Assembly (NCBI GenBank): GCA_964350935.1
Contig: CAYGLL010000007.1
Location: 1 to 51,688 of the forward strand
From: an uncultured Candidatus Saccharibacteria bacterium
GTDB taxonomy: Bacteria; Patescibacteriota; Minisyncoccia; Phycocordibacterales; CAYGLL01
Direction of reading: 5' to 3'
Length of the DNA: 51,688 nucleotides
Position numbers and translations under genes: made by a program
The notes under the pieces: generated by a model
Database searches by the model: none
What the model was told of the DNA's origin: nothing
What the model saw: only the letters and a program-made list of their open reading frames with translations
In this document: positions 8,229 to 42,676 of the stretch, in pieces
Numbering within the stretch: the stretch's first letter is position 1
Layout of the letters: each line of letters begins with the position of its first letter

Positions 8229-8262
8229 CGTGTTATTTCCTTTCTGTTTTGGAAGTTTCGTT

Positions 8263-9265: not shown

Positions 9266-9300
9266 CAAAGAAAAAGGCCTCTCGCATTCACGAGAGGCCT
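9266..9300 (-). terminator. intrinsic terminator after 9309-10886
   Basis: AGGCCTCTCG/CGAGAGGCCT stem followed by TTTTTCTTTG on the minus strand. Confidence 0.75.
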
Positions 9301-9308
9301 TAAAAAAC

Positions 9309-10911: not shown

Positions 10912-10939
10912 AGATTACATAAAAAAAGCTTTTTGTCAA
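10912..10939 (-). promoter_or_regulatory. sigma-70-like promoter for 9309-10886
   Basis: Minus sense TTGACA AAAAGCTTTTTTTATG TAATCT (N16). Confidence 0.6.
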
Positions 10940-11202: not shown

Positions 11203-12912
11203 TTATGCTGCCGGTTGAACCGTGCTCGCCTTCAGGCATTTCGTAAGAGTCTTTTTGGACTCCTCAACAAGAATTTGGAAGTCGTCGTCGTAGTTTCCGT
11301 CACGTGACTCAACAAATGCACTGTCTGCCGCTGAAACGATGTCATCGAAGGTAATTCCCTCGGGAGTTCCGAGATTTTCAACATTGCGCCTGATTGCTAT
11401 CTCAGTCGCCCGCTCGACAATGTTTGCGATCATTGCTCCACTCAGAACATCGCCAAACGTAAACGGACGATCTTCCTTTTGACCGGCGTTATCAGTGAGC
11501 TCAAGGTCGAAAATCACACGCTTCGGACTGAAGACTTCAGTTGCAGCCTGTGCCGCAAGCCCTGCGAGTTCCAAACCTTCCCGCAGAAGCGTCTTCTTGA
11601 GATGAATCGCGAAGATCTGCCCGGCACCCTTTTGATTCCTCGGACGATCAACTTTCACTTTTCGATCGATACGTCCAGGACGGATAATTGCAGGATCCAA
11701 AACATCGGGACGATTCGTTGCGAGAATGATGAGCGCCGAGGATTCCTCGAGCCCATCCATCTCAGCAAGAAACGTCGGGACAATGGTCTTTTCAACGTCC
11801 GAACTGATACCGCTACCGCGCTTTGAAAGCAGAGCTTCCGCCTCATCGATGAAGATGGTCAGCGGGTAGCCATACTTTTTCTTGAACGCACGAGCAAGAT
11901 CGAAGATCTGTCGGATGACACCTTCAGGTTCGCCGACCCACTTGGTCAACATTTCGGGTCCCTTGATGCAGAGAAATCCGCCCGAAACATCTTTACTCGA
12001 CAAGAGTCGAGCACGTGCTGCTGCTGCACCTTTGGCGAGAAGTGTTTTACCGCAACCGGGAGGTCCGTAAATGAGAATTCCTTTGAGTGGCTTCCGCTTG
12101 TATTTTTTGTACAAGTCAGCGTGCACAATGGGAAACTCGATCGCCTGAATCATGACAGAGACGGCTGCATCCTGCCCACCGATATCCGCCCAGGTAAATT
12201 CGAGTTTTTCACTGAACTCAAACCGAGACTCGTCCTTGCCAATGTTGAGAAGAATGATACTTCCCGACTTATCGAGTACGACACGATCGCCGGCTTCAGG
12301 TGACTGCGTACGTCCCAATAAAACGACGCGGGCATTTCCCTGAAACTCAACCTCAACACGTCCGTTATCGAGAATCCGTTTGATCGTAGCGACCCCGCCC
12401 CAGAGTGAGTCCTCGATGACGTCCACAATCTGAAATGTCTTCATCGAGAGTCGCACTGTGTCTCCGGCCTTAAGACTCTTATCCACAGGAAGTTTCACCT
12501 CAAGCTCTCTGCCTTCATAGGCAACAACAACCGAGATACCCCGATCGAAGAGTTCAAGATCGCACTCACCAAGCACAAGCAGAGGGTCATCGTTTCGGGT
12601 TTCACCGATTCGATACTCGCCTTCAGCTCCGCTGTCAAAATGGACCGTAACCCACCCAGGACGTAGAGAATTCTTAATTGTACCGAGACCCATTTTACTG
12701 CTCTCAAGCTCTGCGCCCGGCCGAACAAAAACTCGAACACTCGGTGCAAAATCCTTTGGAGTCGGATTAAGGAGAACACCCTTGCCAATTCGCAGAACAG
12801 TACCAAGAGCAAACGGCTCGCCGGTAAGCTGGAGTATGCGGGCATGCTGTTTGAGAACCGTATCTCGCGACCTCTCAATTACGTCGCGTAACTGCGCATC
12901 ATGTTCAGTCAT
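11203..12912 (-). CDS. ARC/Mpa/PAN-type AAA+ ATPase (coiled coil + OB-like N-domain + single AAA module)
   Basis: Walker A GPPGCGKT and Walker B IFIDEAE. RGSGISSDVEKTIVPTFLAEMDG and NRPDVLDPAIIRPGRIDRKVKVDRP closely resemble the proteasomal-ATPase family as I recall it. The N-terminus has a short helix followed by ~220 aa of beta-rich sequence. Confidence 0.8.
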   Translation of the reverse strand: MTEHDAQLRDVIERSRDTVLKQHARILQLTGEPFALGTVLRIGKGVLLNPTPKDFAPSVRVFVRPGAELESSKMGLGTIKNSLRPGWVTVHFDSGAEGEYRIGETRNDDPLLVLGECDLELFDRGISVVVAYEGRELEVKLPVDKSLKAGDTVRLSMKTFQIVDVIEDSLWGGVATIKRILDNGRVEVEFQGNARVVLLGRTQSPEAGDRVVLDKSGSIILLNIGKDESRFEFSEKLEFTWADIGGQDAAVSVMIQAIEFPIVHADLYKKYKRKPLKGILIYGPPGCGKTLLAKGAAAARARLLSSKDVSGGFLCIKGPEMLTKWVGEPEGVIRQIFDLARAFKKKYGYPLTIFIDEAEALLSKRGSGISSDVEKTIVPTFLAEMDGLEESSALIILATNRPDVLDPAIIRPGRIDRKVKVDRPRNQKGAGQIFAIHLKKTLLREGLELAGLAAQAATEVFSPKRVIFDLELTDNAGQKEDRPFTFGDVLSGAMIANIVERATEIAIRRNVENLGTPEGITFDDIVSAADSAFVESRDGNYDDDFQILVEESKKTLTKCLKASTVQPAA

Positions 12913-12993
12913 AATATATCTGCCTTTGTTTTGTTAAAGACCCAGGTTTTTTTCGTCGATATGCACCAGGCACATCTTCTGAAAACTAAAGGC

Positions 12994-13021
12994 AAACTAG
13001 CATAAAATTATAAAAAGTCAA
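12994..13021 (-). promoter_or_regulatory. sigma-70-like promoter for the AAA+ ATPase operon
   Basis: Minus sense TTGACT TTTTATAATTTTATGC TAGTTT (N16). Confidence 0.5.
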
Positions 13022-13042
13022 TAGTCCTTACGCCTTCTCACT

Positions 13043-13077
13043 AAAAAGAAAAACCCTCCCCGCTTTTGCGAGGAGGG
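13043..13077 (-). terminator. intrinsic terminator after the vWA gene
   Basis: CCCTCC..GGAGGG stem followed by TTTTTCTTTTT on the minus strand. Confidence 0.7.
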
Positions 13078-13096
13078 TGAAGTGACACGGAACAAC

Positions 13097-13831
13097 TTAC
13101 TTCTGCGGCTTAAAGGAGTCTGACTCGGCAAGAACCGATTCGAGGCCCTTCTTGAGATCTCCGGGAGAGTTTGCATCCCGGTAGTTGATCTTCCCTGGCT
13201 GGTTCAACGAGTGGCCGCCACCGATGCAGAAACCCATCGTGTGAATCACCACGGGTGTCCCCGTGAGGATTTCTTTGACGATCTCACTCGGGTCCTGACC
13301 CATGTTGGCTTCGCCGTCGGTGACAACCACCAGGTGGTACTCACCATAGCCCAGTTGTCGGGCAGCCTGTCGTTTCACCTTCTCGTACGCGAGTGTGATT
13401 GAGTCCTTGAGCGGAGTGTTAGCTCGGGTGTCGGAGACATCGACCGCGCGGTTGAACTCTTTCCGGTTGTTTACGTTAAGAGGTACCCGCTCAGTAATGC
13501 CGTCACCATCGAAGACCAGAAGCCCGAGGTTGTCTTCAGGGTTAAGTCTTGAAGCGAACTCTTTGACGGCCCGCTTCGCAACTGCCGACTTGGACTCGCT
13601 GCCTGAGCAACCGCTGCTCGCCATACTCCCGGAACCGTCGAGAACGATGTAGAAATTTCGCCTCGTCTGTTCCGGATCAAGATCGGTGCTGTCGGTGCCA
13701 TACCACGCCTGCACTCCAAGAGTGCTCGTGCCGGCACTACTGCTCCCCGATCCCGTCGCATCTGCCGAATCTTTGCAGCCTGTAGAGAGGAGTAACCCAA
13801 GAATGAGTGTTGGAAACAGATATCTCATCAT
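13097..13831 (-). CDS. von Willebrand factor A (vWA) domain lipoprotein
   Basis: Lipobox LLLSTGC; MIDAS start FYIVLDGSGSM. Tandem ATGs at 13831/13828 lie right after AGGAGG and the upstream stop codon; the track start 13987 overlaps the upstream gene. Confidence 0.75.
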   Translation of the reverse strand: MMRYLFPTLILGLLLSTGCKDSADATGSGSSSAGTSTLGVQAWYGTDSTDLDPEQTRRNFYIVLDGSGSMASSGCSGSESKSAVAKRAVKEFASRLNPEDNLGLLVFDGDGITERVPLNVNNRKEFNRAVDVSDTRANTPLKDSITLAYEKVKRQAARQLGYGEYHLVVVTDGEANMGQDPSEIVKEILTGTPVVIHTMGFCIGGGHSLNQPGKINYRDANSPGDLKKGLESVLAESDSFKPQK

Positions 13832-13838
13832 GGCCTCC

Positions 13839-15533
13839 TTACTTGGCGGGAGTGAACACCGAGGCTTCGGCCTCGACGGGAACCAAACGGAATACAGCGC
13901 GCATGTTTGAGAGGAATTTCTCCTCGCTGTCAGGCCGCACCGGAATACCGTTCTGCATTCCTGTCTTCGGATTTGAGAACCCGACACCGCTCACGCCGAA
14001 CTGAGACGAATCAAGCGTATGCTTTTTTACGTTTGAAGCGTAATCAAGAACCGCCTGCCGAACGGCTGCGGCTCGTGAGAGAGAAAGGTTCCTTCCGCTC
14101 TGCGCAATCCGTTTGAGCACCGCATCAGGTGCATTGGTCTTTGCCGCATCAACATAGCCTGTTGGGTCGCTATGACCTTCGATACTGATGATCGCTCCGG
14201 CGTACGTAGTCGCAAGCTCAATCACCCGTTCGAAGTCCTCCTTGTAGGCTTCCGCGTCGAACGTTTGTTTGTTCGGCGGGAACTTCACCTCAAAGGTGAC
14301 CACGGCCGCTGCACCGAGCGTGCCGGCAGCGGTTTTCTTCGCGACAAACTGTGCAACCGCTTCCGGCTGGAAACGTGGAGCTTCCGCCATTGAGGTGTTG
14401 AAGAGACCTTGTTTCAGATCATCGTAATTGAGAACGCCATGCTCAAGGAGAACCGTTGACTTCAGGATGTTGAGTTTCATAAAGGCCTGCTGGATCTCAC
14501 TGTTGAGAGCCAGGAAGCCGCGCGGAAACGTCGGATCATTGAAGAACTTCACATTGCCGGGATAGCCGACAAACGTGCAGTCTGCATAGAGTCCTTTCAC
14601 GTCTTCAGTCATGTCCTTGGTGTCGAGAAGCATCAGTGCACTCGCAGGAAGCAGACGATCGAGCTCGGGCTTGCGGGCGGGGTCTTTCATGATTCGTGCG
14701 ACCTGTTCCTCTGCGAGGAGCAGGGCGTGCACAAACTTTTCAACCTCACCGCGATGAGACTCGAAGTACTCCTGACTACACACATAGACGTCGGGAATTG
14801 CCTGATTTGCAGTCAACGTGGAGAAGAGCGAACGAGCGCCCCGCACCGCCTTGTCACCGCTTACCAGTTCCTTGGCATCAGGCGAAATCACAAACGCCGC
14901 GTGGACATTTGGATCTTGCCTGAATGCTGCTCCCGGCGTGTTGTCGGTACCAGTAATGTCTTTGACGTATTTGATCGTAACATCCGTCGGAGAAAGATTT
15001 CCCCGCTTAAGAATCGTCGTGAGAAGATCGAGATGCGGGCCGTAAGCCTGAATCACGATTGTTTTCCCCCGAAGGTCCTCGATGCTGTTGATCCCGCTTT
15101 TAACGACGAGCACATCGCCACCCGATGACCATGTCATCTGGTAGACCGTGACCGGCCGCGTCCGCGGATCCTGATTGAGAAGTTCGGCTGCTTGATTCAA
15201 CATGCCGAGCGTAACCCGCAAGTAAGGACTCTGGCCGCCCATGTATCCCACCAGCTGATTGGTGAACACGTCCTGACGAACGAGCCTGAAGTTCAAGCCC
15301 TGCTTCGCAAAGATCGAGTTGGGCGCCGTGTTAGTGGCACTCCCGTTCCCGAAGATGGTGGCGATATCACCGCCCCACGTGATGATCGGGAGTTGATCCG
15401 CCGGACCGTTCCTGGTATAGGAGCGGACGGGGGTCTTCACGACATCACGAAGCGGCTTCTGTTCGATGTATTGAGCAGCATTAAGCGCGAGCGCCTGAAT
15501 GCAGAGGATAACTAACCACAGGTGTCTTTTCAC
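13839..15533 (-). CDS. secreted binding-protein-like :: OmpA_C-like fusion protein (paralogous architecture to 9309-10886)
   Basis: GTG start behind AGAAAGG; signal peptide; binding-protein-like body; C-terminal IEGHSDPTG...LSLSRAAAVRQAVLDY...MRAVFRLV is OmpA-like. Confidence 0.7.
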   Translation of the reverse strand: MKRHLWLVILCIQALALNAAQYIEQKPLRDVVKTPVRSYTRNGPADQLPIITWGGDIATIFGNGSATNTAPNSIFAKQGLNFRLVRQDVFTNQLVGYMGGQSPYLRVTLGMLNQAAELLNQDPRTRPVTVYQMTWSSGGDVLVVKSGINSIEDLRGKTIVIQAYGPHLDLLTTILKRGNLSPTDVTIKYVKDITGTDNTPGAAFRQDPNVHAAFVISPDAKELVSGDKAVRGARSLFSTLTANQAIPDVYVCSQEYFESHRGEVEKFVHALLLAEEQVARIMKDPARKPELDRLLPASALMLLDTKDMTEDVKGLYADCTFVGYPGNVKFFNDPTFPRGFLALNSEIQQAFMKLNILKSTVLLEHGVLNYDDLKQGLFNTSMAEAPRFQPEAVAQFVAKKTAAGTLGAAAVVTFEVKFPPNKQTFDAEAYKEDFERVIELATTYAGAIISIEGHSDPTGYVDAAKTNAPDAVLKRIAQSGRNLSLSRAAAVRQAVLDYASNVKKHTLDSSQFGVSGVGFSNPKTGMQNGIPVRPDSEEKFLSNMRAVFRLVPVEAEASVFTPAK

Positions 15534-15607: not shown

Positions 15608-15635
15608 ATATTACATAAAAAGCTCTCTATGTCAA
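15608..15635 (-). promoter_or_regulatory. sigma-70-like promoter for the 13839-15533 / vWA operon
   Basis: Minus sense TTGACA TAGAGAGCTTTTTATG TAATAT (N16); overlaps the stop of the upstream gene. Confidence 0.6.
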
Positions 15636-24034: not shown

Positions 24035-24062
24035 TTGACAAATCTTTAAAAATATGTAATAT
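24035..24062 (+). promoter_or_regulatory. sigma-70-like promoter for ORF 24185
   Basis: TTGACA AATCTTTAAAAATATG TAATAT (N16). Confidence 0.6.
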
Positions 24063-24941: not shown

Positions 24942-26504
24942 CTAACGAACCGGGACTGAAAACGAAAACGTGCTTCCCTTTCCCTTTCCTTCGGATGAAA
25001 CCTGAAGCGATCCTTCATGGTGGGAAATAATCTGACGTGCTAAATAGAGTCCCACACCCAAACCCTCTGTATCGAGTTTTTTCTGATCATCACCGCGATA
25101 AAAACGTTCAAAAACTCGCCCCAAATCCTCCCGGGCCATTCCCACCCCTGTATCTTTAATCTCGCATATTGTTTTGTCCTGATCCTGCCATAAGCGTACA
25201 GAAACCTTTCCGCCCGCAGGAGTATAGTTAACAGCATTATCCAATAGTATCTGGAGTACAAATTTAATGCGTGTTGCATCAATCTTCGCTGTCAGATGCG
25301 CGCGCATATCCTTTTCAAGAGTTATTTTTTTGTCCTCAATTTTTTTGGCATAGTCAGCCAAAACCTCCGTCAAAAAACTTGAAAAATCAACAACCTCAAA
25401 TTTATAGAGGTAGTTCTTACTTTCAGTTTCTGAAACCCCCACCAGAAGATTGGTAAGTTCGGTAAGGCGAGTTGTGGAATGCTGTATGTCAATCAAATCT
25501 TTCTTTGTCTCCTCACCTACGTTGCGCTGAAGTGCATTTTCGCTTGCCCATTTGATATGAGTAAGCGGCGTGCGGAATTTATGTGTCGCAACATTAATAA
25601 ACTCATATTTTAAGATGTCCACCTCTTTAATTTTTCGCCAGACAAAAATACCGATAGTAACCGTCACTAACGAAATAAGAAACGGAAAGAACCACAAAGG
25701 AAACTCCGGAACTCTTGTCAAAATATAGTTGTTAGCAAGACTAACCAAACTTGTGAGAAATCCCATGAGAATGACCAGAAGTGCATACACAAGCGCTTTC
25801 TTAGCCACCACTCGAATATCCATAAGATCAAACTTAACCACCGCGTAGGCAAATGGCACTGCAAACAAAACACCGAAGTAGCTTGCCCATGCCGGATCAA
25901 CAGGTATGTTATACACCAATAAAATAGCCACACTTCCAAAAGCGTAACCGAGCAAAAAACTCACAAAAAAATATTTTAAACGATTTTGAAGCCCGCGGAC
26001 ACTTGTTGGATAGACGCGAATGATATGAATGAAAAAATAGAGCGGCACCAACATATTTGAGAATACCCTCATGATCCAGTGGTAGGGGCCCGGAACATAG
26101 TAGTTCAAAAAATACAGTTTGGAACGGGAGTCTAAGAGAAAGAAGTCCGGAAAAATAAGATAAAAAATAAAAAGTGCGGCAGAGACAGTATAAATAATCA
26201 TGAGCGGCATTTTTTCCTCTTTTAACTTTCCGGTCACCGCAAACGTACAATGTGCAAAAAAACAGGAAAGAAAAATATTCGCCAAATTAAACATTAATAC
26301 ATTTCGGGAAAGATGCGGATCACGGATATTTACTCCAATAAGATGCGAGACCGTAAAAACGCCGACCGAAATAAAACCCAAAATGAGCATTCTGTTTGCC
26401 ACTTTGCTGTGATCTTTAATATAGACAAAAAGAGCAAGCCCAAGAAAAGCGATCGACGTAAGCGTGAAGCCGGCGTTATGGAGAAAAAGGTTGACGTTAA
26501 TCAC
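24942..26504 (-). CDS. membrane sensor histidine kinase
   Basis: ~7 TM N-terminal region, H-box ATHKFRTPLTHI, HATPase boxes LLDNAVNYT / DTGVGM / GLGVGL; GTG start. Confidence 0.8.
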   Translation of the reverse strand: MINVNLFLHNAGFTLTSIAFLGLALFVYIKDHSKVANRMLILGFISVGVFTVSHLIGVNIRDPHLSRNVLMFNLANIFLSCFFAHCTFAVTGKLKEEKMPLMIIYTVSAALFIFYLIFPDFFLLDSRSKLYFLNYYVPGPYHWIMRVFSNMLVPLYFFIHIIRVYPTSVRGLQNRLKYFFVSFLLGYAFGSVAILLVYNIPVDPAWASYFGVLFAVPFAYAVVKFDLMDIRVVAKKALVYALLVILMGFLTSLVSLANNYILTRVPEFPLWFFPFLISLVTVTIGIFVWRKIKEVDILKYEFINVATHKFRTPLTHIKWASENALQRNVGEETKKDLIDIQHSTTRLTELTNLLVGVSETESKNYLYKFEVVDFSSFLTEVLADYAKKIEDKKITLEKDMRAHLTAKIDATRIKFVLQILLDNAVNYTPAGGKVSVRLWQDQDKTICEIKDTGVGMAREDLGRVFERFYRGDDQKKLDTEGLGVGLYLARQIISHHEGSLQVSSEGKGKGSTFSFSVPVR

Positions 26505-26553: not shown

Positions 26554-26618
26554 ATTAGCGACGTAGAGTGAGAGAAATGAAGAATTCTTATTTTTCATTT
26601 CCGAACCGAGAAGCTAAT
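26554..26618 (+). repeat. structured intergenic element, copy A (65 nt)
   Basis: ATTAGC GACGTAGAGTGAGA GAAATGAA..TTCATTTC CGAACCGAGAA GCTAAT, 23 nt from the rpoD stop. Confidence 0.85.
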
Positions 26619-26641
26619 ATAAGGCTTAAATACCGCTTTTA

Positions 26642-27829
26642 TTAGTAGCTCTTAAGTTTTGATATTTTTTCGTGCTGGCGAATTTTTTCGTGGGCTTTTG
26701 CTTCGATCTGGCGGATACGCTCACGGGTAACGCCGAATTTCTGGCCAACCTCTTCGAGTGTGTGTGTAATACCGTCCATAAGCCCATGACGCATCTCAAG
26801 AATCCTCTGCTCTTTATCTGAAAGATCTTCAAGAATTTCACGCACCTGATCACGCAAAATACGACGTGATGCTTCCTGGTCTGGAGACAGAATCTTATCA
26901 TCAAAAAGAAAATCTCCGAGGGTTGATCGTCCATCATCACTATCATCGCCAACCGGACTCTCGAGTGATACGGTGTCCTGATCAATCTTTTCGATTTGGT
27001 AAATTTTATCGGTATCAACTCCCATTTCAATTCCAATTTCCTCCGGTAACGGGTCACGTCCCAAATCCTGCGACAGACGTCGTACTACTTGTTTATATTT
27101 AGCAATGGTCTCAACCATGTGAACCGGAACACGAATGGTGCGCGACTGATCAGCGAGAGCACGCGTGATAGCCTGGCGAATCCACCAGGTTGCGTAGGTT
27201 GAAAACTTGTAACCTTTTTTCCAGTCAAACTTATCAACCGCCTTAAAGAGACCGAGGTTTCCTTCCTGAATAAGATCGAGAAGTGTTAAATCAGGACTGC
27301 GCCCAACGTATTTTTTTGCAATCGAAACAACGAGACGTAGGTTTGCGCGAGCAAGCAAATTTTTTGCTTCGTCGTCACCTTTTTCAATCCGCTTTGCAAG
27401 TTCTTTTTCCTCAGCTGCATTGATGAGGGGGTACTGTCCAATCTCTTTCAAATACATTTGGATAGAATCGTACGAGGAATCGCTCTTTGAGTAACCATAC
27501 TGCTTTGTCTGTTTTTCTTCCTGCTGGATTTCAAGCATTCCCCCTCCCTCAAGAACGTCAATACCGGCCACGCTAAACTTTTCATACAACGTATCGAGGA
27601 ACGAAATATCATTTTCAATAGTCGGAAATTCTCGCAAAATTTCATCATACGTCACAAAGCCTCGCTCTTTACCCTTAGCAATCAAACGGTCGGCTTTGCG
27701 ATCAAAATCCTGAGCCTTTTTTGAAGCACTTTTTTGTGGAACAGCAGGCTGCTTTTTAGACACAGCCTTCTCAGGCGTTTTCTTTTTGGCGACTTTTTTA
27801 ACCGATTTTTTTGTATTTTTTTTCTTCAT
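26642..27829 (-). CDS. rpoD: RNA polymerase sigma-70 factor RpoD
   Basis: Lys-rich N-terminus; region 2 YATWWIRQAITRA; region 4.2 TLEEVGQKFGVTRERIRQIEAKA. Confidence 0.9.
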   Translation of the reverse strand: MKKKNTKKSVKKVAKKKTPEKAVSKKQPAVPQKSASKKAQDFDRKADRLIAKGKERGFVTYDEILREFPTIENDISFLDTLYEKFSVAGIDVLEGGGMLEIQQEEKQTKQYGYSKSDSSYDSIQMYLKEIGQYPLINAAEEKELAKRIEKGDDEAKNLLARANLRLVVSIAKKYVGRSPDLTLLDLIQEGNLGLFKAVDKFDWKKGYKFSTYATWWIRQAITRALADQSRTIRVPVHMVETIAKYKQVVRRLSQDLGRDPLPEEIGIEMGVDTDKIYQIEKIDQDTVSLESPVGDDSDDGRSTLGDFLFDDKILSPDQEASRRILRDQVREILEDLSDKEQRILEMRHGLMDGITHTLEEVGQKFGVTRERIRQIEAKAHEKIRQHEKISKLKSY

Positions 27830-27834
27830 AAATT

Positions 27835-27941
27835 ATTAGCGACGTAGAGTGAGCGACCTTGTTTGATTTATCAGACAAGGAGTACCCTTGTGGTATGAAA
27901 TGGGAAATTTTTATTTTTCATTTCCGAACCGAGGAGCTAAT
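27835..27941 (+). repeat. structured intergenic element, copy B (107 nt = copy A layout plus 42-nt two-hairpin insertion)
   Basis: Same ends and loops as copy A; begins 5 nt from the rpoD start codon. Confidence 0.85.
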
Positions 27942-28027
27942 ATAAGAGTTACCTTACCTGAGACTATACCGACCATACGTCATATTCCTGGAATTATACT
28001 GATCTCTATTACTAATAAATACTGCTT

Positions 28028-29773
28028 TTATTTTCGTTCCTTCAGCTGAATTTCGTTGATTTTTTTTGAAACGTCCTGCGACCTCTTCAGGAGTGACATT
28101 GCTTTTAAGTGATCGTGCTCCCGTTCGACCTTGTCTATCTCAATTATCAGTCCTGCAAGTTCTGCTTTAAGGTATTCAAGATGGATATCGTTTAATAGTC
28201 GGCTAATATCCTCAGAAATGACTTGCGATGTATCATAATACGCTTCTGCCTCAAAAATCAATCTTTGCTGAGCCTCCTCCTCAATGTTCTTTAAAAACTG
28301 ACTCCCTCGCGATCCCCCTGAAATCTGGTCCCATTCTTTAAGAACAGTATCCGGGTCTCGCGCCGGCGATTTTGTTGTTTTAAGCCATAAAATGACCCCA
28401 GTCAGGCGTTGCTCGAGAAAATCTTTTCGATCAAACGCAACACGTTCCGATCCTACTTTAACAGCGATTTCTTCGCCTCCCGATGAACCAGCTTTGGCAA
28501 GCACACTGTCACGAGATATATGAGCGAGATCCTTCCATAAGGCGTCGTCTTTAATTCGTGTCATTTTTGATATTTCACTGATGAAATGTGACTGCACGAC
28601 CGAACTTTCAATAAGTGACACCAGGGGCAACACCTCGTGTGTAACACGACGGGCCAAAACCCTGCCGTCGGTCGCTTCTTTTACTGCGCGCTCGGCGAAA
28701 AAAGTAATAACGTGATTTGATTCCTTGATTACTGCCTTAATTACCTCAAGTCCGTGGCGCGCAATATCTGCAGGATCTTGCCCGTCCGGAAAAAGTGCAA
28801 TCTTAACTTCCATGCCTTGCGCGAGGGTAAGTACCGATGCTCGATATGCCGCTTTCAAACCCGCCGCGTCACCATCATACGCAAGAATCATATTAGAAGA
28901 GAGACGGCGCACCAATTCAATCTGTTCGAACGAAAGAGCGGTTCCCGACGTTGCTACGACATTAGTAAGTCCAACCTGATGTGACATAACGAGATCCATC
29001 TGACCCTCAACCAGTATCGAGTAGCCGAATTTTCTCATGCCGTCTTTTGCCTTATCAAAACCGTAGAGTACTTTTGATTTGGTGAAGATCGGCGTCTCGG
29101 GACTATTCAAATATTTCGGTTCGTTTTCTTCCTGGTTTAAAATTCTTCCTGAGAAAGCAACAATGCGACCAGAACTATCGAAGATGGGAAACTGGATGCG
29201 CCCGCGGAAACGATCATACACTGTTTTGCCGTCATCGGATTTTTTTATGAGCCCCGCCTTCTCCATCTCCCCCTGCGTATATCCACGCGAAGAAAGGTGC
29301 GTTCCGAGTGCGCGCCACTCTTTTGGCGCAAACCCCAAACGCCATTTTTCAAATGAAGCCTGATTTAATCCGCGTTTGAGAAGATACTCGCGGGCGGCAG
29401 TTTCCGTTGTTAAGTTTGACTCGAACCATCGCGACGCCTCTTCCATGATTTCGTACAACTTGTCCTTCTCGCTCTTTAAAGTCGGGTTTTCTTTTACAAT
29501 CTCAACACCCGCACGCGCAGCCAGAGTTTTGAGTGCGCCCAGAAAATCAGTTCCCTCAAACTGCTCAACGAAAGTGAACATGTCCCCTTTCATGCCGCAT
29601 CCAAAACAATAGAACGTGCCCCGGTTGGGTGACACGAAAAAGGATGGCGTCTTTTCGTGATGAAAAGGACACCGTGCCTTGTAACTCGAACCGGCTTTCT
29701 CAAGCTTGATTGAACCTCCGATCACGTCAACGATCGAAAGCCGGTCTTTAATTTGTTCTACAGTTGAAGACAT
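28028..29773 (-). CDS. dnaG: DNA primase DnaG
   Basis: CHC2 zinc finger CPFHHEKTPSFFVSPNRGTFYCFGCG; TOPRIM EGQMDL...YDGDAAG. Confidence 0.9.
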   Translation of the reverse strand: MSSTVEQIKDRLSIVDVIGGSIKLEKAGSSYKARCPFHHEKTPSFFVSPNRGTFYCFGCGMKGDMFTFVEQFEGTDFLGALKTLAARAGVEIVKENPTLKSEKDKLYEIMEEASRWFESNLTTETAAREYLLKRGLNQASFEKWRLGFAPKEWRALGTHLSSRGYTQGEMEKAGLIKKSDDGKTVYDRFRGRIQFPIFDSSGRIVAFSGRILNQEENEPKYLNSPETPIFTKSKVLYGFDKAKDGMRKFGYSILVEGQMDLVMSHQVGLTNVVATSGTALSFEQIELVRRLSSNMILAYDGDAAGLKAAYRASVLTLAQGMEVKIALFPDGQDPADIARHGLEVIKAVIKESNHVITFFAERAVKEATDGRVLARRVTHEVLPLVSLIESSVVQSHFISEISKMTRIKDDALWKDLAHISRDSVLAKAGSSGGEEIAVKVGSERVAFDRKDFLEQRLTGVILWLKTTKSPARDPDTVLKEWDQISGGSRGSQFLKNIEEEAQQRLIFEAEAYYDTSQVISEDISRLLNDIHLEYLKAELAGLIIEIDKVEREHDHLKAMSLLKRSQDVSKKINEIQLKERK

Positions 29774-29811
29774 GGTTCGCGAGAGGCATCACACCTCGAC
29801 ACGTTACTACC
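29217..29811. repeat. tandem duplication unit 1 (595 bp, dnaG 5' end plus 38-nt leader)
   Basis: Identical by eye to 29812-30406. ORF-track proteins at 29376 and 29971 are identical with a 595-nt offset. TACA microhomology at all three junction points. Confidence 0.9.
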
Positions 29812-30368
29812 TACACTGTTTTGCCGTCATCGGATTTTTTTATGAGCCCCGCCTTCTCCATCTCCCCCTGCGTATATCCACGCGAAGAAAGGTGCGTTCC
29901 GAGTGCGCGCCACTCTTTTGGCGCAAACCCCAAACGCCATTTTTCAAATGAAGCCTGATTTAATCCGCGTTTGAGAAGATACTCGCGGGCGGCAGTTTCC
30001 GTTGTTAAGTTTGACTCGAACCATCGCGACGCCTCTTCCATGATTTCGTACAACTTGTCCTTCTCGCTCTTTAAAGTCGGGTTTTCTTTTACAATCTCAA
30101 CACCCGCACGCGCAGCCAGAGTTTTGAGTGCGCCCAGAAAATCAGTTCCCTCAAACTGCTCAACGAAAGTGAACATGTCCCCTTTCATGCCGCATCCAAA
30201 ACAATAGAACGTGCCCCGGTTGGGTGACACGAAAAAGGATGGCGTCTTTTCGTGATGAAAAGGACACCGTGCCTTGTAACTCGAACCGGCTTTCTCAAGC
30301 TTGATTGAACCTCCGATCACGTCAACGATCGAAAGCCGGTCTTTAATTTGTTCTACAGTTGAAGACAT
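29811..30368 (-). pseudogene. truncated duplicate of the dnaG 5' end (185 aa: zinc finger plus start of the polymerase domain)
   Basis: Amino-acid sequence identical to DnaG residues 1-185. It ends at a TAG created at the duplication junction (29811-29813). Confidence 0.65.
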
Positions 30369-30406
30369 GGTTCGCGAGAGGCATCACACCTCGACACGTT
30401 ACTACC
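29812..30406. repeat. tandem duplication unit 2 (595 bp)
   Basis: See unit 1. Confidence 0.9.
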
Positions 30407-30425
30407 TACAACTGACTTTTAAACA

Positions 30426-37626: not shown

Positions 37627-38274
37627 TTATCCCCGTTTCTTCATCTTCCATTCATCAATCTTGGCGCGATGCCCCGAAAGCAACACTTTCGGCACTCGAT
37701 ACTTTTTTTCTTTCCAGACAAACACTTCGGGTCGTGTATAGACCTCCGATGAAGAAACCCGCTCCTCTTCGCGTGAATCAAAATTTCCGAGCACTCCTTC
37801 AATCTGTCGTGCGACACAATCAATGACGGCCATCGCCGGCAACTCGCCGCCTGTCAAAACATAAGGACCGACTGAAAGCTCCTCAGCTTTAAAAATTTTT
37901 TTGACACGGGCATCGATCCCCTCATAGCGACCACATACTAAAATAATATGTTTGAATTTTTCTGCCATCTGCTTTGCATCATTTGTTTCAAACTGTTTTC
38001 CGCCGGGAGACAAAATAAAAATTCCTACTTTTTTATTTCGTGTTTTTTTCTTTGCAGCCTCAATCGCCCGTACGAACGACTCCGCCTCCAACACCATCCC
38101 CGGTCCTCCGCCATACGGCGGTCGGTCAACCCGACGATGTTTGTCTTTCGTAAATGCTCGCGGATTATAAAAAGTAACCTTAATTTTTTTATCTGTTATT
38201 GCGCGACTCAAAATCGACTCGCCTAAATACGAATCAAATGAAGCGGGAAACAATGTAATAATATGAAATTTCAT
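37627..38274 (-). CDS. trmD: tRNA (guanine37-N1)-methyltransferase
   Basis: YGGGPGMVL, CGRYEGIDARV and GGELPAM motifs. Confidence 0.9.
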   Translation of the reverse strand: MKFHIITLFPASFDSYLGESILSRAITDKKIKVTFYNPRAFTKDKHRRVDRPPYGGGPGMVLEAESFVRAIEAAKKKTRNKKVGIFILSPGGKQFETNDAKQMAEKFKHIILVCGRYEGIDARVKKIFKAEELSVGPYVLTGGELPAMAVIDCVARQIEGVLGNFDSREEERVSSSEVYTRPEVFVWKEKKYRVPKVLLSGHRAKIDEWKMKKRG

Positions 38275-38301
38275 TGACAGAAATAAATATTACTGTATTG
38301 T
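38274..38301 (+). promoter_or_regulatory. sigma-70-like promoter of an orphan plus-strand unit
   Basis: TTGACA GAAATAAATATTACTG TATTGT (N16), divergent from trmD. Confidence 0.5.
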
Positions 38302-38634
38302 CATATCGGTGTCAAAAAGATCCTTACGAGCAAATTCGCATCAGAAAAAACTTCTCGTGCTGAACGGACACTTCGTATTCGCATCTGCAACTGGTTTGAT
38401 AGGCTCTCTGACAGTGGTAGAAATATTTTTGGTGACTGGGCAACGTATGAAAATGCTCCGGCACTTCAAAACTTGGCTTTGAAGCAACTTCACAGGGGAC
38501 TCCGGAATGTCAGCATACGAAAACTTCGCGCCGCATTTCCCCACCTTCTGCAAAGTATTCGCTCTTCTGAAAGTGGCTGGCGAATCCTTGAATACATCGC
38601 GCCAGCATCCTAGTACTGTTAGCGTCCTTTAAAT

Positions 38635-38659
38635 CCCACCCTGATCGGTGGGGTTTTTT
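38635..38659 (+). terminator. intrinsic terminator of the orphan plus-strand unit
   Basis: CCCACC ctgatc GGTGGG followed by T6. Confidence 0.7.
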
Positions 38660-38663
38660 AATT

Positions 38664-38686
38664 AAAAACCTCAGCCGTAGCTGAGG
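38664..38686 (-). terminator. intrinsic terminator after GNAT 38712-39149
   Basis: CCTCAGC cgta GCTGAGG followed by T5 on the minus strand. Confidence 0.75.
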
Positions 38687-38711
38687 TTGTAACTATCTCC
38701 GAACACCTGTT

Positions 38712-39149
38712 TCATGATCTATCACACTGAAATCGATACACACCCGCCTTACGCCTCTTGAAACCAAGACGCCGGTACATTCGCTTCACCTCAATACGAG
38801 TCGACGTAGAAACAAGCTCAATCCGTTTGAAATCAGAGGACTGGGCAATCTTCAGAACAAACTCCATCAACTCCTCCTCAGTTTCACTTCCGCGAACATT
38901 GTTGTTAACCGCCAAATCCTCTATGAGACACACTCGTCCAGAGAGCTTTGTAATACGCACGAGGGTTGCCATTCCGACAATATAGCCGCGGTCATTTCGC
39001 ACAACAATGAGAGTATGAGCTTTCATTCCACGCTCAATGTCCTCTCTGAACACCGGTGCGTGACTCAACTGCATTGTTAAAAGTCGCAAACAACTTACAT
39101 CGTGCTCGGCAAGTGTTGGAGGGTTAAAAATCTCGTACTTTGCTTCCAC
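38712..39149 (-). CDS. GNAT-fold protein with degenerate acetyl-CoA loop
   Basis: Paralogous to 39294-39719, but the R-x-x-G-x-G loop reads VRGSETEE; GTG start behind AGGAAA. Confidence 0.55.
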   Translation of the reverse strand: MEAKYEIFNPPTLAEHDVSCLRLLTMQLSHAPVFREDIERGMKAHTLIVVRNDRGYIVGMATLVRITKLSGRVCLIEDLAVNNNVRGSETEEELMEFVLKIAQSSDFKRIELVSTSTRIEVKRMYRRLGFKRRKAGVYRFQCDRS

Positions 39150-39176
39150 AGGTTTCCTTTCTCTTTTCTATAGATG

Positions 39177-39204
39177 AGACTACATCTTCAATTTTATTTG
39201 TAAA
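39177..39204 (-). promoter_or_regulatory. cassette promoter 1 (GNAT 38712-39149)
   Basis: Minus sense TTTACA-N16-TAGTCT within the shared module TTTCTTTACAAA...TCTCA...AGAAAAGAGAAAGG. Confidence 0.55.
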
Positions 39205-39232
39205 GAAAAAAGCCGATCAGAAATAATCGGCT
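39205..39232 (-). terminator. intrinsic terminator after GNAT 39294-39719; its T-tract runs into the next -35 box
   Basis: AGCCGAT..ATCGGCT followed by TTTTTTCTTTACA on the minus strand. Confidence 0.7.
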
Positions 39233-39293
39233 TAAGAGTCTTCCGACTTCCGAAAATGAGTACTACCGCCTTTGCTCACATCGACTACACACT

Positions 39294-39719
39294 TCAAAAC
39301 GTAAGACGGTACACATTGGTATCCCGCTTCTTAAAACCAATACCCTCGTAGAGGCGCACTGCCGCACCATCGGTGGAACGAGTGGTAAGGTCAAGGAGTG
39401 ACATGCCGCTCTCTTTTGCATACCAGACCACTTTCTTCATGAGAATTTTTCCAATTCCCCTGCCGCGGTACTTTTTACACACACTAACATCCTGAACAGA
39501 GCCGTATTCCTTGCCCGCAAGAAAAATGGGTACCAACGTTGTTACGGCAATAATCCTTTCTCCTTCGTTCCTCACCACAAACATCTGATTGTGTGTTGCG
39601 GCAGCAACAACAGAATTGATAGTAATGATTCGCTTAGGTGAAAGCTCGAGCGTAGTTTTGATAATATCCTGTATGTCTAGCTCGATTAGCGGTTCTGCGT
39701 AGAAAAGTTCACATTCCAT
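39294..39719 (-). CDS. GNAT-family N-acetyltransferase
   Basis: 141 aa; motif A VCKKYRGRGIGKILM; C-terminal YEGIGFKK. Confidence 0.75.
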   Translation of the reverse strand: MECELFYAEPLIELDIQDIIKTTLELSPKRIITINSVVAAATHNQMFVVRNEGERIIAVTTLVPIFLAGKEYGSVQDVSVCKKYRGRGIGKILMKKVVWYAKESGMSLLDLTTRSTDGAAVRLYEGIGFKKRDTNVYRLTF

Positions 39720-39740
39720 AACATTCCCTTTCTACAAATG

Positions 39741-39768
39741 AGACTATCGAATTTTAATATTTTGTAAA
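39741..39768 (-). promoter_or_regulatory. cassette promoter 2 (GNAT 39294-39719)
   Basis: Minus sense TTTACA-N16-TAGTCT, same module. Confidence 0.55.
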
Positions 39769-39790
39769 GAAAAACCGCCCTCTTGGACGG
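39769..39790 (-). terminator. intrinsic terminator after ORF 39804-40034
   Basis: CCGTCC aaga GGGCGG (one G-U pair) followed by TTTTTCTTTACA on the minus strand. Confidence 0.6.
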
Positions 39791-39803
39791 CTTGACCCTG
39801 TTC

Positions 39804-40034
39804 TCACTCGGGAGCAAAGCAGGTCCCGTTTGTGCAGATTTGAACTGCTGGGTGATTGAGTGGAAACAAGTCAGTGTGGTCAAAGAGCACCAGAAGCAAT
39901 GTTCGAAAATGTTCGCGCCTTGTAGAGCTCATTCTCATGCCTTCAAGCGCGTCCCAGAAATCTTCGCTTTCAACTTTCGAAATGCAGTAAAGTCTGAACC
40001 AGGCGGTAAATGCATCAAAGGGGTCACGTATCAT
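39804..40034 (-). CDS. small hypothetical protein, 76 aa
   Basis: ATG 40034 lies behind the shared promoter-leader module (40060-40087) and AGAAAG; terminator 39769-39790. Confidence 0.4.
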   Translation of the reverse strand: MIRDPFDAFTAWFRLYCISKVESEDFWDALEGMRMSSTRREHFRTLLLVLFDHTDLFPLNHPAVQICTNGTCFAPE

Positions 40035-40059
40035 ACATTTCTTTCTTTTTTCTACTGTG

Positions 40060-40087
40060 AGAATACACCTTGGGTCTCTTTTGTAAA
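40060..40087 (-). promoter_or_regulatory. cassette promoter 3 (ORF 39804-40034)
   Basis: Minus sense TTTACA-N16-TATTCT, same module. Confidence 0.55.
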
Positions 40088-40112
40088 GAAAAAGCCGGCA
40101 GATTGTGCCAGC
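40088..40112 (-). terminator. intrinsic terminator after ORF 40121-40414
   Basis: GCTGGCA caatc TGCCGGC (one mismatch) followed by TTTTTCTTTACA on the minus strand. Confidence 0.6.
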
Positions 40113-40120
40113 TTCAAAAC

Positions 40121-40414
40121 TCACTTCTTTTCAGCTTTCCTTCTCATTCCCCTTAGAACAACAAACACAAAGTACAAAACAATGGCGGAGACGCACGCAA
40201 TGTTTATTTGACTCCTTGAGCGCCCGGTCCAGCTCGAAAGCCTATCACCAAAACTGCTGAAAGCCGCAAACGAGGTGAAGACCATAAGGAAAGTTGTAGT
40301 AAGCAGAACGCGGAAAAAGATCCTGCAACTGTTATCCGAACGTGGGTGGCCTCCGAACGAGAGTACGGAACTAACCACCACGACAAGGGTTAACGCGAGG
40401 GCGATATACAGCAT
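40121..40414 (-). CDS. small three-TM membrane protein, 97 aa
   Basis: ATG 40414 lies behind the shared promoter-leader module (40443-40470) and GAGAAAGG; terminator 40088-40112. Confidence 0.45.
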   Translation of the reverse strand: MLYIALALTLVVVVSSVLSFGGHPRSDNSCRIFFRVLLTTTFLMVFTSFAAFSSFGDRLSSWTGRSRSQINIACVSAIVLYFVFVVLRGMRRKAEKK

Positions 40415-40442
40415 AGTTGAGCCTTTCTCTTTTCTGATTCTG

Positions 40443-40470
40443 AGATTACAGCGTTTTAAAATTTTGTAAA
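40443..40470 (-). promoter_or_regulatory. cassette promoter 4 (ORF 40121-40414)
   Basis: Minus sense TTTACA-N16-TAATCT, same module. Confidence 0.55.
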
Positions 40471-40584
40471 GAAGTACAATAGCACAAATGCCGGCTCTCG
40501 CCGGCATTTGTTCCTTCTTTTCCTCCTCCAAAAGATTTAAGTATCCTTTGAACGAGTTAGCGAAGCGCTTTAGTGAAAAGATAC

Positions 40585-40899
40585 TTAAATCTTCAAATCA
40601 TCCATTGCTTCGTCGACAGTCTTTGCTCCTGACTTAGGTGGGGGACGTGTGCTGCCTTCCGGTTCATTGATTTTCAAATTAACGCGAGCGTTATTTTTCA
40701 TACCAACGACACGAAGAAGCGTACGGATAGCCTTTGCAGTATTACCCGTGCGGCCAATGATCTTACCCATATCAGCTGGGTTAACTGAAAGTGTAAGTAA
40801 TACTCCCATCTCATCGACGGTACGGTTGATTTTGACATCATCCGGAGCGTCTACCAATGACTTAACTAAAAATTCAAGAAACTGTGCATCTCGTTCCAT
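40585..40899 (-). CDS. KH-domain RNA-binding protein (YlqC/UPF0109-like)
   Basis: MGKIIGRTGNTAKAIRTLL KH GXXG loop; usual partner of rpsP in the rpsP operon. Confidence 0.8.
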   Translation of the reverse strand: MERDAQFLEFLVKSLVDAPDDVKINRTVDEMGVLLTLSVNPADMGKIIGRTGNTAKAIRTLLRVVGMKNNARVNLKINEPEGSTRPPPKSGAKTVDEAMDDLKI

Positions 40900-41081: not shown

Positions 41082-41591
41082 TCAATTATATCTTCCACCG
41101 CCTCCGCAGTTTCCTGCTTGATCCCCTTCAAACTCAAAAAATGGTGGGTGCTGCTTTTCTGGCTCTCTCATCTTCTGCTTGCCGGGTTCACCTGCTGGAT
41201 ACAATTTTCTGAGGTCAACTGGCGGCAAATCTTGTTGCGTTGGTGGAGGCTCACCGTTCGGACCTGATGCGCCATTGTCCATCCAAGACTGAAACTTTAA
41301 GTGCTGCAAATAATCTCCCGGGCTCGGATTACCGCCGCGGAAATCCTCCATCACGTGGTATTGCCCAATTTCGCGAACTGAAATCTTTACACCATTTGAA
41401 AGGGTAATCTCGTGACCGAAAATCTTTTCGAGAATGACTTTCACAAACCAGGTATTGTGCGTAAGCGTACGATGACGGAGATCTCCAAAAGTTTCGCCGC
41501 TTGAATCCATGAGCTCATGGATTTTAATGTAGTCGTCAGTTGTGCCACCCCAGCGGGCAACACTTTGCCGGGCATGCTCAATCGGTACCAT
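41082..41591 (-). CDS. hypothetical protein, 169 aa, with Pro/Gly-rich tail
   Basis: ATG behind AAAGGAA. The N-terminal ~105 aa look globular. There is a faint resemblance to a phage-associated DUF that I cannot verify. Confidence 0.5.
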   Translation of the reverse strand: MVPIEHARQSVARWGGTTDDYIKIHELMDSSGETFGDLRHRTLTHNTWFVKVILEKIFGHEITLSNGVKISVREIGQYHVMEDFRGGNPSPGDYLQHLKFQSWMDNGASGPNGEPPPTQQDLPPVDLRKLYPAGEPGKQKMREPEKQHPPFFEFEGDQAGNCGGGGRYN

Positions 41592-42144: not shown

Positions 42145-42615
42145 CTACTGACGCCAAATTGAGAAACTCCCATCAAGGGTGTTTATGAGCATCGCCTCCC
42201 CTTGGGTTAGCTTTTCCTTGCGAATTTTCCTTCCCAACATTACATCGGCATAGTGGTTTGGAAGTGCAAAAGCCAATTCATCGTGCGTACATAAGACGAC
42301 AACATCGGCTTTACTCTCAAGCGACAGGAGTAGATCGCATATCTCTCTGAGAGCCCTCTCAAAATCAGTCCGATCGTCTGAGAAGAGAAAATCATGGAAC
42401 TCAACATCGATGAGACTTTGACCAACCAATTCAGCAAGAGGAGTGATGGTTCGCTCCGTTCTACCTTTCTTTGAGCTGTGGAAAGAAAACCGCTGTGTAG
42501 GCGCAAACTCGGACGCAAATTTTTCTTTGAGTTTTTCTACCTGTTTCAAACCGACCTCTGAAAGACGGTTTTCACCTTCCGGATTACAGTGTCGAATTAC
42601 TAAAAGTTGTTTCAT
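42145..42615 (-). CDS. histidine phosphatase superfamily protein (SixA/PGAM-like)
   Basis: N-terminal LLVIRHCNPEG resembles the RHG catalytic motif; ATG 42615 preferred over TTG 42624. Confidence 0.45.
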   Translation of the reverse strand: MKQLLVIRHCNPEGENRLSEVGLKQVEKLKEKFASEFAPTQRFSFHSSKKGRTERTITPLAELVGQSLIDVEFHDFLFSDDRTDFERALREICDLLLSLESKADVVVLCTHDELAFALPNHYADVMLGRKIRKEKLTQGEAMLINTLDGSFSIWRQ

Positions 42616-42676
42616 ATTCTTCAAGAAGGATATGCTAACAGGAGTGGGCTTGTCAATACGACCAAAACGTGATAGG

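Follow-up and report, generated by a model that had tools for sequence, protein, structure and literature searches.

Four small genes in the khpA-trmD slot of a Paceibacteria chromosome carry the same terminator-promoter-leader module

Results

Four minus-strand genes between khpA and trmD

We analyzed a stretch of DNA of 51,688 nt (51.7 kb; hereafter the window), which is part of a chromosome of the Paceibacteria, in the Candidate Phyla Radiation (CPR), and we read its minus strand from 38,664 to 40,510 directly. Between khpA and trmD, four short genes follow one another on this strand: a 97-aa open reading frame (ORF), a gene for a 76-aa protein, and two acetyltransferase genes of the GNAT superfamily, GNAT2 and GNAT1 (Table 1). 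Each of the four is preceded by a copy of the same compact promoter-leader sequence and is followed by a hairpin with a T-tract. From the analysis described below, we conclude that this array is real but fairly ordinary, and that it consists of independent transcription units and is not a mobile cassette system.

Table 1. Features of the khpA-trmD interval and its two borders, in the order in which they are read on the minus strand; positions are those of the window.
Feature	Position	Strand	Remarks
khpA (KH-domain RNA-binding protein)	40585-40899	-	Upstream border of the slot; Pfam KH_KhpA-B, E 6e-21; 60-83% identical in relatives
Hairpin after khpA	40484-40511	-	12-bp stem, -23.2 kcal/mol, z -7.2; 12 nt upstream of copy 4
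Module copy 4	40415-40473	-	TTC; -35 TTTACA 40470-40465; 16-nt spacer with TG; -10 TAATCT 40448-40443; CA; predicted start CAG; leader AGAAAAGAGAAAGGCTCAACT
97-aa ORF	40121-40414	-	Three hydrophobic segments (hydropathy), basic C-terminus; orphan, coding status uncertain
Intrinsic terminator of 97-aa unit	40091-40115	-	-16.3 kcal/mol; T-tract enters the next -35
Module copy 3	40035-40090	-	-35 TTTACA 40087-40082; -10 TATTCT 40065-40060; CA; leader AGAAAAAAGAAAGAAATGT
76-aa protein	39804-40034	-	Small family between khpA and trmD in other Paceibacteria; helical
Intrinsic terminator of 76-aa unit	39772-39793	-	-15.3 kcal/mol
Module copy 2	39720-39771	-	-35 TTTACA 39768-39763; -10 TAGTCT 39746-39741; CA; leader AGAAAGGGAATGTT
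GNAT2	39294-39719	-	141-aa acetyltransferase; Pfam Acetyltransf_1, E 3e-14; intact RGRGIG acetyl-CoA motif
Intrinsic terminator of GNAT2	39210-39233	-	-12.6 kcal/mol
Module copy 1	39150-39207	-	-35 TTTACA 39204-39199; -10 TAGTCT 39182-39177; CA; leader AGAAAAGAGAAAGGAAACCT; gene starts with GTG
GNAT1	38712-39149	-	145-aa diverged paralogue of GNAT2 (29% identity); Pfam E 1e-9
Intrinsic terminator of GNAT1	38667-38688	-	-17.8 kcal/mol; end of the array, no module after it
trmD consensus promoter	38287-38315	-	TTGACA-17-TAATAT; ends 12 nt before ATG
trmD	37627-38274	-	Conserved downstream border of the slot; Pfam tRNA_m1G_MT, E 8e-40

The same module precedes all four genes

The 11-mer TTCTTTACAAA occurs exactly four times in the window, always on the minus strand (39197-39207, 39761-39771, 40080-40090, and 40463-40473), and the composite pattern TTCTTTACAAA-N14-TANTCTCA has four exact matches in the window against 0.00 expected from 100 dinucleotide-preserving shuffles. 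All four composite matches precede the four consecutive minus-strand genes, and each copy lies downstream of a stable hairpin. The layout is the same throughout, with a -35 element TTTACA, a 16-nt spacer, a -10 element TAnTCT (TA(G/T/A)TCT), and then CA, and three of the four copies have TG at -15/-14. This is the arrangement that an initial annotation of the DNA had claimed before these genes, with a shared word that it did not see elsewhere in the window, and both statements hold: neither the 11-mer nor the composite pattern precedes any of the approximately 40 other genes of the window. In the alignment of the four copies, the same non-consensus bases recur in all of them while the spacers differ. 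The likeness also reaches beyond these blocks, as copies 2 and 4 are 82% identical across 33 nt, spacer included, and the 14-nt leader AGAAAAGAGAAAGG of copy 1 is the same as that of copy 4 (14/14).

We scanned the whole window for promoters with TT[GT]ACA-N15-18-TAnnnT. The frame common to the other good promoters of the window is aTTGACAAA-N14-TGTAATAT, in which the spacer is 16 nt (examples are at 24035 on the plus strand and at 15635, 10939, 5661, and 49245 on the minus strand), and the module matches it in TTGACAAA, the 16-nt spacer, and TGTAAT. Judging by these sequences, the AAA after the -35 element, the spacing, and the TG before the -10 element are this genome's house style. All four copies have hexamers like TTGACA and TATAAT upstream of a gene, and their spacer falls within the 16-18 bp of sigma-70 promoters. 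The purine-rich ribosome-binding site that had been noted is also present, with the qualification that other genes of the window use it too: AGAAAGG lies 8-15 nt before several unrelated starts (genes ending at 8228, 15533, and 49125; upstream regions of about 44 window ORFs), so the purine leader carries the genome's normal Shine-Dalgarno sequence. A motif of the AGAAAGG type is complementary to a 16S 3′ tail of the Bacillus subtilis type; the window holds no 16S gene. In the related loci described below, the Shine-Dalgarno sequence is TAGAAAGG or TAGAAAGGAGG.

Other bases are private to the four copies. The third position of the -35 element is T in 4/4 copies and in 0/11 of the other promoter-like scan sites (all 11 have G), the TTC flank before the -35 element is likewise found at 0/11 of these sites, and the TCT of the -10 element combined with the following CA belongs to the four copies only, while AGAAAA(G/A)AGAAAG is private to copies 1, 3, and 4. 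These bases must be set against the simplest alternative, in which there is nothing special about the module, and it is a common weak-promoter form of this genome found before four neighbors by chance or because terminator and -35 element overlap compactly. Such a reading can point to the generic frame and Shine-Dalgarno sequence, to TAATCT as the -10 element at 10939, and to promoter-like sequence abutting terminators before a DUF6915 gene of the window and in two related loci (L082 and L088). It is at odds with the lack of the 11-mer and of the composite pattern before the other genes, with copy 4, which retains TTCTTTACAAA without an abutting T-tract, and with similarities of spacer and leader that exceed any consensus, and we consider it quite improbable. 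Because the copies are similar at positions that no consensus needs and also share private bases, we conclude that they are related copies, a distinct promoter sub-family, and not random draws. Thus, the outcome that the initial annotation had named as fatal to its reading, a module that is the generic promoter of most genes, does not hold as far as the approximately 40 other genes of the window go, though the frame of -35 element, spacer, and -10 element is shared.

A further explanation for the conserved bases is that TTCTTTACAAA, TGTAnTCTCA, and the AGAAAAGAGAAAG leader are kept by a dedicated factor, and that the four genes are a co-regulated mini-regulon and are switched together. Candidates for such a factor would be a transcription factor, an alternative sigma factor, and, at the level of the leader, an RNA-binding protein, and common descent of the modules would be compatible with any of these. 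The non-consensus bases fit this explanation, as they are identical in four copies with differing spacers and absent from the other promoters of the window, and a gene for a KH RNA-binding protein lies directly upstream. The conserved blocks, however, are exactly the -35 element, the extended -10 element, the start element, and the Shine-Dalgarno sequence; there is no extra operator-like or palindromic element, and the spacer, a frequent repressor site, is unconserved. The array also contains no regulator gene, and the sole sigma factor of the window is a standard rpoD. We regard a mini-regulon as possible but rather unlikely.

Hairpins close the four units

All four array genes (the 97-aa ORF, the 76-aa gene, GNAT2, and GNAT1) end in a GC-rich hairpin directly followed by a T-tract, as intrinsic terminators do. 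Their energies lie between -12.6 and -17.8 kcal/mol, and no shuffled sequence is as stable. The three hairpins that stand before copies 1-3 (-12.6 to -16.3 kcal/mol, z -3.9 to -5.9; positions in Table 1) have tails that read TTCTTTACAA or TTTTCTTTAC in the consensus scan, and their T-tracts run straight into TTCTTTACA, as had been claimed for these copies. At copy 4, the hairpin after khpA is separated from the module and was scored as a terminator on the plus strand only; because no clean T-tract follows it on the minus strand, we predict that it is a weak terminator there. We also tried the hairpins as homologous parts of the module, as three of them share AAGC(C/T)G...CGG(C/T)TT, and did not count this because similar terminators also occur in other parts of the window and in relatives.

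The cargo proteins are heterogeneous

The four proteins are as heterogeneous as had been claimed, with two GNATs that are distant paralogues, a 97-aa ORF in which three segments are hydrophobic, and a 76-aa protein in which no stretch is strongly so. The 97-aa ORF matches only itself among 5.8 billion proteins in a word-index search and has nothing below E = 0.09 in Pfam, NCBIfam, PADLOC, and PHROGs, and its codon score of -0.19 is under that of every 80-codon window of the training genes. The codon score of the 76-aa gene is also low (-0.16), and here homologues show that the gene is real. A 142-aa ORF antisense to this part of the array (39783-40211, plus strand) was rejected as spurious by its codon score and its lack of signals.

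The word-index search gave no homologue of the 76-aa protein, and exact-protein look-ups of this protein and of GNAT2 gave nothing on record, while phmmer against 1.84 billion representatives gave six matches to the 76-aa protein (E 1e-8 to 6e-4). The genes for three of its homologues, P0005 (L082), P0007 (L084-86), and P0009 (L087-90), immediately follow khpA and precede trmD. By identity, L082 ranks among the closest relatives of the window found here (82% in KhpA, close also in TrmD) and L088 among the most distant (52% in TrmD). Because the family is in the same slot in both close and distant relatives, we conclude that it is an old, patchily kept resident of the slot. In L082, the gene is flanked upstream by a terminator, a promoter-like site, and the Shine-Dalgarno sequence TAGAAAGG, and downstream by a terminator. 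An AlphaFold2 (AF2) model of the 76-aa protein has four helices (pLDDT 76) and matches no PDB fold below E = 1; the only PDB sequence profile match was a lectin, which we judged spurious. Two other members of the family (in L083 and on the contig of P0008) immediately follow a Cyt-b5-domain gene and a DoxX gene, which hints at a second conserved context.

GNAT2 has both the fold and motif A of the GNAT superfamily. Its best named model is NCBIfam rimI (TIGR01575), whose cut-off of 86.4 bits is missed by both GNAT2 (42.2 bits) and GNAT1 (19.6 bits), so both proteins resemble RimI without qualifying as RimI equivalogs. The nearest homologues of GNAT2 are 37-42% identical and share with it the C-terminal signature LGFKKRDTNVYR (KKRDTNVYR), which is also present in the slot GNAT of the related locus L028. 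GNAT1 has the fold and not the motif: its acetyl-CoA loop is degenerate, with RGSETE where (Q/R)xxGxG/A is expected (RGRGIG in GNAT2), and we take it to be a degenerate paralogue that may be inactive or catalytically dead.

The initial annotation had suggested that the cargo be compared with databases of defense and toxin-immunity systems. Against PADLOC-DB, none of the four proteins has a significant match (best E 0.01-0.05, partial), no GNAT-toxin, defense, or toxin-antitoxin family is among their NCBIfam and PADLOC matches, and their PHROGs matches are to generic acetyltransferase families only. These results bear on the possibility that the locus is a toxin-antitoxin or defense islet in which the 76-aa protein is the antitoxin to GNAT2, similar to TacA and TacT. 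As in the type II pairs of a GNAT toxin and a ribbon-helix-helix (RHH) protein (TacAT, AtaRT, KacAT), a GNAT gene is immediately preceded by a small gene, and the same slot of one relative (L070) holds a toxin-like PBECR2 gene. Unlike those pairs, the two genes here have a terminator and a promoter between them and are predicted to be transcribed separately, the 76-aa protein has no match to RHH or DUF1778 and is modeled as all-helical, and the GNATs are shorter (141-145 aa), are most like RimI, and match no GNAT-toxin model, with all PADLOC values at E >= 0.01. Moreover, the partner family occurs without a GNAT, as in L082 and L084 and in L088, where the 154-aa neighbor has no GNAT match. We therefore consider a toxin-antitoxin pair or defense islet highly improbable.

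The khpA-trmD slot varies among relatives

A TrmD search gave 80 related loci (here numbered with L), all in metagenome-assembled genomes (MAGs) of the Paceibacteria type of CPR bacteria, labeled Zambryski-, Taylor-, or Nomurabacteria, with <=69% identity. The backbone in these relatives is the same as in the window, RNase R (divergent)-rpsP-khpA-trmD-rpoB. In 67 related loci, khpA and trmD are separated by a median of 157 nt (minimum 6 nt), and by more than 500 nt in 16 of them; in the window the distance is 2,311 nt. The expanded slots hold a family of ~130 aa (L009, L016, L036), a 148-aa protein (L012, L036), a GNAT (L028) and a weaker GNAT match (L023), a secreted protein of ~365 aa (L036, L038, L042), a helicase (L040), and a subtilase (L061). 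The slot of L070 (about 9284-9643) holds a protein with a PBECR2 (Barnase/EndoU/RelE-like) nuclease domain, and the slot can thus host toxin-like genes. In L036 and L088, the extra genes are spaced 10-35 nt apart in operon-like packing, and full insulation of the kind found in the window is thus not general.

The synteny comparison that had been proposed for rpsP to trmD thus supports a variable slot with cargo that differs by lineage, with the reservation that two cargo types recur in it. A fixed four-gene operon in relatives, which would have spoken against an accessory array, is partly approached, as the 76-aa family and the GNAT subfamily return in the slot; no relative has all four genes.

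The order of rpsP, a khpA-like gene, and trmD is that of the rpsP-(KH protein)-rimM-trmD-rplS operon of Escherichia coli, B. subtilis, and others. Differences are that no rimM or rplS is found in this stretch of the window, that no gene of the size of rimM fits the slot of a typical relative, and that in the window four terminators interrupt the series and a separate promoter precedes trmD.

Two relatives, L044 and L048, have tandem or nearby paralogues of small membrane proteins with duplicated promoter/leader blocks by the same conserved cluster. In L044 (region 7840-9050) the duplicated block is 35 nt, and the terminators are duplicated too; in L048 (region 11423-14440) the block is 27 nt. 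Local copying of a gene together with its promoter therefore occurs in this group. Compared with the window, the likeness is that a block of 27-50 nt of promoter and leader (in L044 with a terminator) is repeated before neighboring small genes; the difference is that the cargo there is paralogous, so that duplication of whole units suffices, whereas in the window only the two GNATs are paralogues.

In the window, further genes lie along the backbone. A DUF6915 gene (41082-41591; it also matches phrog_8143, a phage protein family) stands between rpsP and khpA, and a weak histidine-phosphatase-like gene (42145-42624) stands between RNase R and rpsP. Tblastn against the 80 related loci gave a counterpart of neither, and accessory genes are therefore interspersed along the whole RNase R-rpsP-khpA-trmD backbone of this genome. 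At trmD (38274-38315) and at the histidine-phosphatase-like gene (42615-42656), consensus promoters end ~3-12 nt before the likely start codon, which suggests that these mRNAs are leaderless or near-leaderless, unlike those of the array genes with their Shine-Dalgarno leaders.

The same insertion contains a unit on the plus strand, with a promoter-like site at 38274-38301 and a terminator at 38631-38656. Between them is a stop-free frame of 109 codons (38287-38613) with no ATG, GTG, or TTG until 38473. The unit (38287-38656) has no match in Rfam, Pfam, or the relatives, and its 358-nt stretch folds no better than shuffled sequences (z -0.76). It could be a decayed gene, a gene with an unusual start, or a small RNA.

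Signs of mobility

The initial annotation had called the locus a cassette-style accessory array rather than an operon. That it is not an operon agrees with our results, because each of the four genes has its own predicted terminator and promoter, and the genes are accessory and occupy a variable slot. Mobile or exchangeable cassettes, in contrast, receive no support from the searches described here.

Pfam scans of the ORFs across the window gave no integrase, transposase, or other recombinase. The G+C content is 43-48% across the array, similar to that of the flanks, and the 2.3-kb insertion has no match in the phage or plasmid collections. The search of related MAGs that had been advised gave no copy of the module in the 80 loci (1.3 Mb), and an alignment of metagenome contigs to module copy 1 at 80% likeness returned the locus itself only. 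The strict motif had one match in a collection of metagenome contigs that excludes the window's own contig, inside an AT-rich coding sequence, and the 18-base motif had 11 isolated matches in viral contigs. No hairpin or leader accompanies any of these matches, and we attribute all of them to chance.

Three metagenome runs of one study contain the locus at 5-9x, and none of the three shows a presence/absence or structural variant of it. One joint in run X1 that skips 2310 nt and leads from khpA straight to trmD was traced to short matches (80-87%) of other community members, in which the two genes adjoin, and is not a variant of this population.

These data can be compared with what is known of integrons. 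Integron cassettes are normally promoterless, end in an attC site of 57-141 bp, and adjoin intI and attI. The array resembles them in that short unrelated genes run on one strand and each is followed by an inverted repeat. It differs in that every gene has its own promoter, that no integrase was detected in the Pfam scans of the window's ORFs, and that the repeats are plain terminators of 22-28 nt with perfect stems in place of bipartite imperfect palindromes; attC core motifs were not searched explicitly. A cassette array in the wider sense would be one in which the module and its gene are captured together by site-specific or module-mediated recombination, like an integron whose cassettes have their own promoters. 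The heterogeneous cargo and self-contained units would be expected of it, the slot is variable in relatives (with the PBECR2 nuclease, helicase, and subtilase in different lineages), and the neighboring DUF6915 gene matches a phage family. Yet the window has no recombinase, the hairpins are far shorter than attC sites, the module is nowhere else in the searched sets, there is no phage or plasmid match, compositional shift, or structural variant in the three runs, and the 76-aa and GNAT types are syntenic residents of the slot in distant relatives. We find mobile cassettes very unlikely.

The module can also be compared with miniature repeats that bear promoters or terminators, such as the Correia elements of Neisseria, in which a short repeat supplies expression signals to unrelated genes. 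It has no terminal inverted repeats or target duplications, and its copies are not dispersed as those of miniature inverted-repeat transposable elements are, with four at one locus and none in the relatives and collections searched.

Other features of the window

Rfam gave nothing at gathering thresholds (sub-threshold noise only, E up to 1), and no tRNA was found. A second shared upstream module was observed at 26554-26628 and 27835-27951. It is ~75 nt long, is 87-95% identical between its two copies, and precedes two neighboring genes on the minus strand, one for a histidine kinase (24942-26504) and the other rpoD (26642-27829). The module contains an inverted repeat, GAAATGAA..TTCATTTC, and a block CTCACTCTACGTCGCTAAT, and may be a common regulatory or leader element.

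At 29217-30410 there is a perfect tandem duplication with a unit of 595 nt (599 nt identical at offset 595) that covers the 5′ end of dnaG and the region upstream. The result is a truncated copy of 185 aa (29811-30368), which retains the zinc ribbon and some of the catalytic core and lies ahead of the complete primase gene (28028-29773). The duplication could be a very recent event or an assembly artefact.

Discussion

The locus works like ordinary sigma-70 units with intrinsic terminators, set in a variable islet of the classical rpsP-trmD cluster. What is unusual about it is the reuse of a single compact terminator-promoter-leader module for genes that are unrelated. The explanation that we favor, and think probable, is that the locus is a lineage-specific expansion of the khpA-trmD slot into four insulated monocistronic units, with a module that spread by local copying and was preserved by selection. 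What we count for it is the four composite matches against none expected, their status as a sub-family with similarity beyond any consensus, the hairpin and T-tract at the end of every unit, the fit of the predicted starts to published start elements, the similarly flanked homologue of the 76-aa protein in L082, the paralogy of GNAT1 and GNAT2, the variability of the slot, the duplications in L044 and L048, and the second shared upstream module in the window.

From the observed repeats, hairpins, synteny, and homologies we infer promoter use, start sites, termination, and a copy-and-keep history as follows. Each unit would begin with a weak housekeeping promoter of the sigma-70 type (TTTACA, a 16-nt spacer with TG in 3/4, TAnTCT), followed by a 5-6-nt discriminator beginning with CA. 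Transcription would start at the A of YAG, 7-8 nt past the -10 element, and would run through an all-purine leader of 14-21 nt that is essentially the Shine-Dalgarno sequence AGAAAGG before it reaches the start codon and a short gene. A GC-rich hairpin terminator would close the unit, and in units 1-3 its T-tract would double as the 5′ flank of the next -35 element. For Terrabacteria lineages, a survey of 49 species that included a CPR bacterium (PMC12641261) describes a "start element" (YRR/YRY) and an initial region rich in A and G, and the predicted YAG start and AG-rich initial transcript fit both.

As for the history, the four modules would be copies of one ancestral expression module of 60-90 nt, spread by local duplication, including the duplication of the GNAT gene. 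The functional blocks would then have been held by selection while spacers and hairpin sequences drifted. Indeed, because the cargo is <=29% identical and the blocks are nevertheless identical with drifted spacers, the blocks must be held by selection. It may be a set, modest strength of the promoter or else a shared regulator that this selection preserves. In this way, unrelated genes would be expressed at one modest level and would share whatever regulation exists, and the units would be insulated from each other and from rpsP-khpA upstream. Four terminators would also cut the ancestral co-transcription of khpA and trmD, which is in line with trmD having acquired a consensus promoter of its own.

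Several points weigh against a locally copied module. The runs that hold the locus are all DNA, and promoters, starts, and terminators are predictions. The 51.7 kb inspected are one part of the genome, and further copies may lie elsewhere in it. The non-consensus bases kept in all four copies could equally reflect a bound regulator, and the coding status of the 97-aa ORF has no support from codon usage or homology. Finally, neither the 76-aa protein nor the 97-aa ORF is related to the GNATs, so duplication of whole units cannot explain all four, and either copying of the module alone or replacement of cargo must be assumed.

Copying of the module alone, taken further, would make it a portable "expression adaptor", a terminator-promoter-leader of ~60-90 nt that is copied without a dedicated recombinase before ORFs that arrive or arise in the khpA-trmD hot spot. 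We offer this as a speculative and improbable extension. Through such an adaptor, the orphan 97-aa ORF with its non-genic codon usage could be a candidate for de novo gene birth in a minimal CPR genome, and raw sequence would be turned into an expressed, insulated mini-gene.

The locus reveals no new mobile element, defense system, or mechanism. Its interest lies in the organization of transcription in CPR bacteria (Patescibacteria), about which almost nothing is known from experiments, and for which it is a clean natural example of a minimal expression unit, with a terminator overlapping the -35 element, an extended -10 element, a predicted YAG start, and a purine leader of 14-21 nt. Such a module could serve as a compact, insulated expression part. 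The comparison with relatives also identifies the rpsP-khpA-trmD-rpoB backbone of Paceibacteria as a hot spot for small accessory genes and the 76-aa protein as a member of a small, previously unnamed family linked to the position between khpA and trmD. Should the copy-and-keep history be right, the array would also illustrate how promoters spread locally in reduced genomes.

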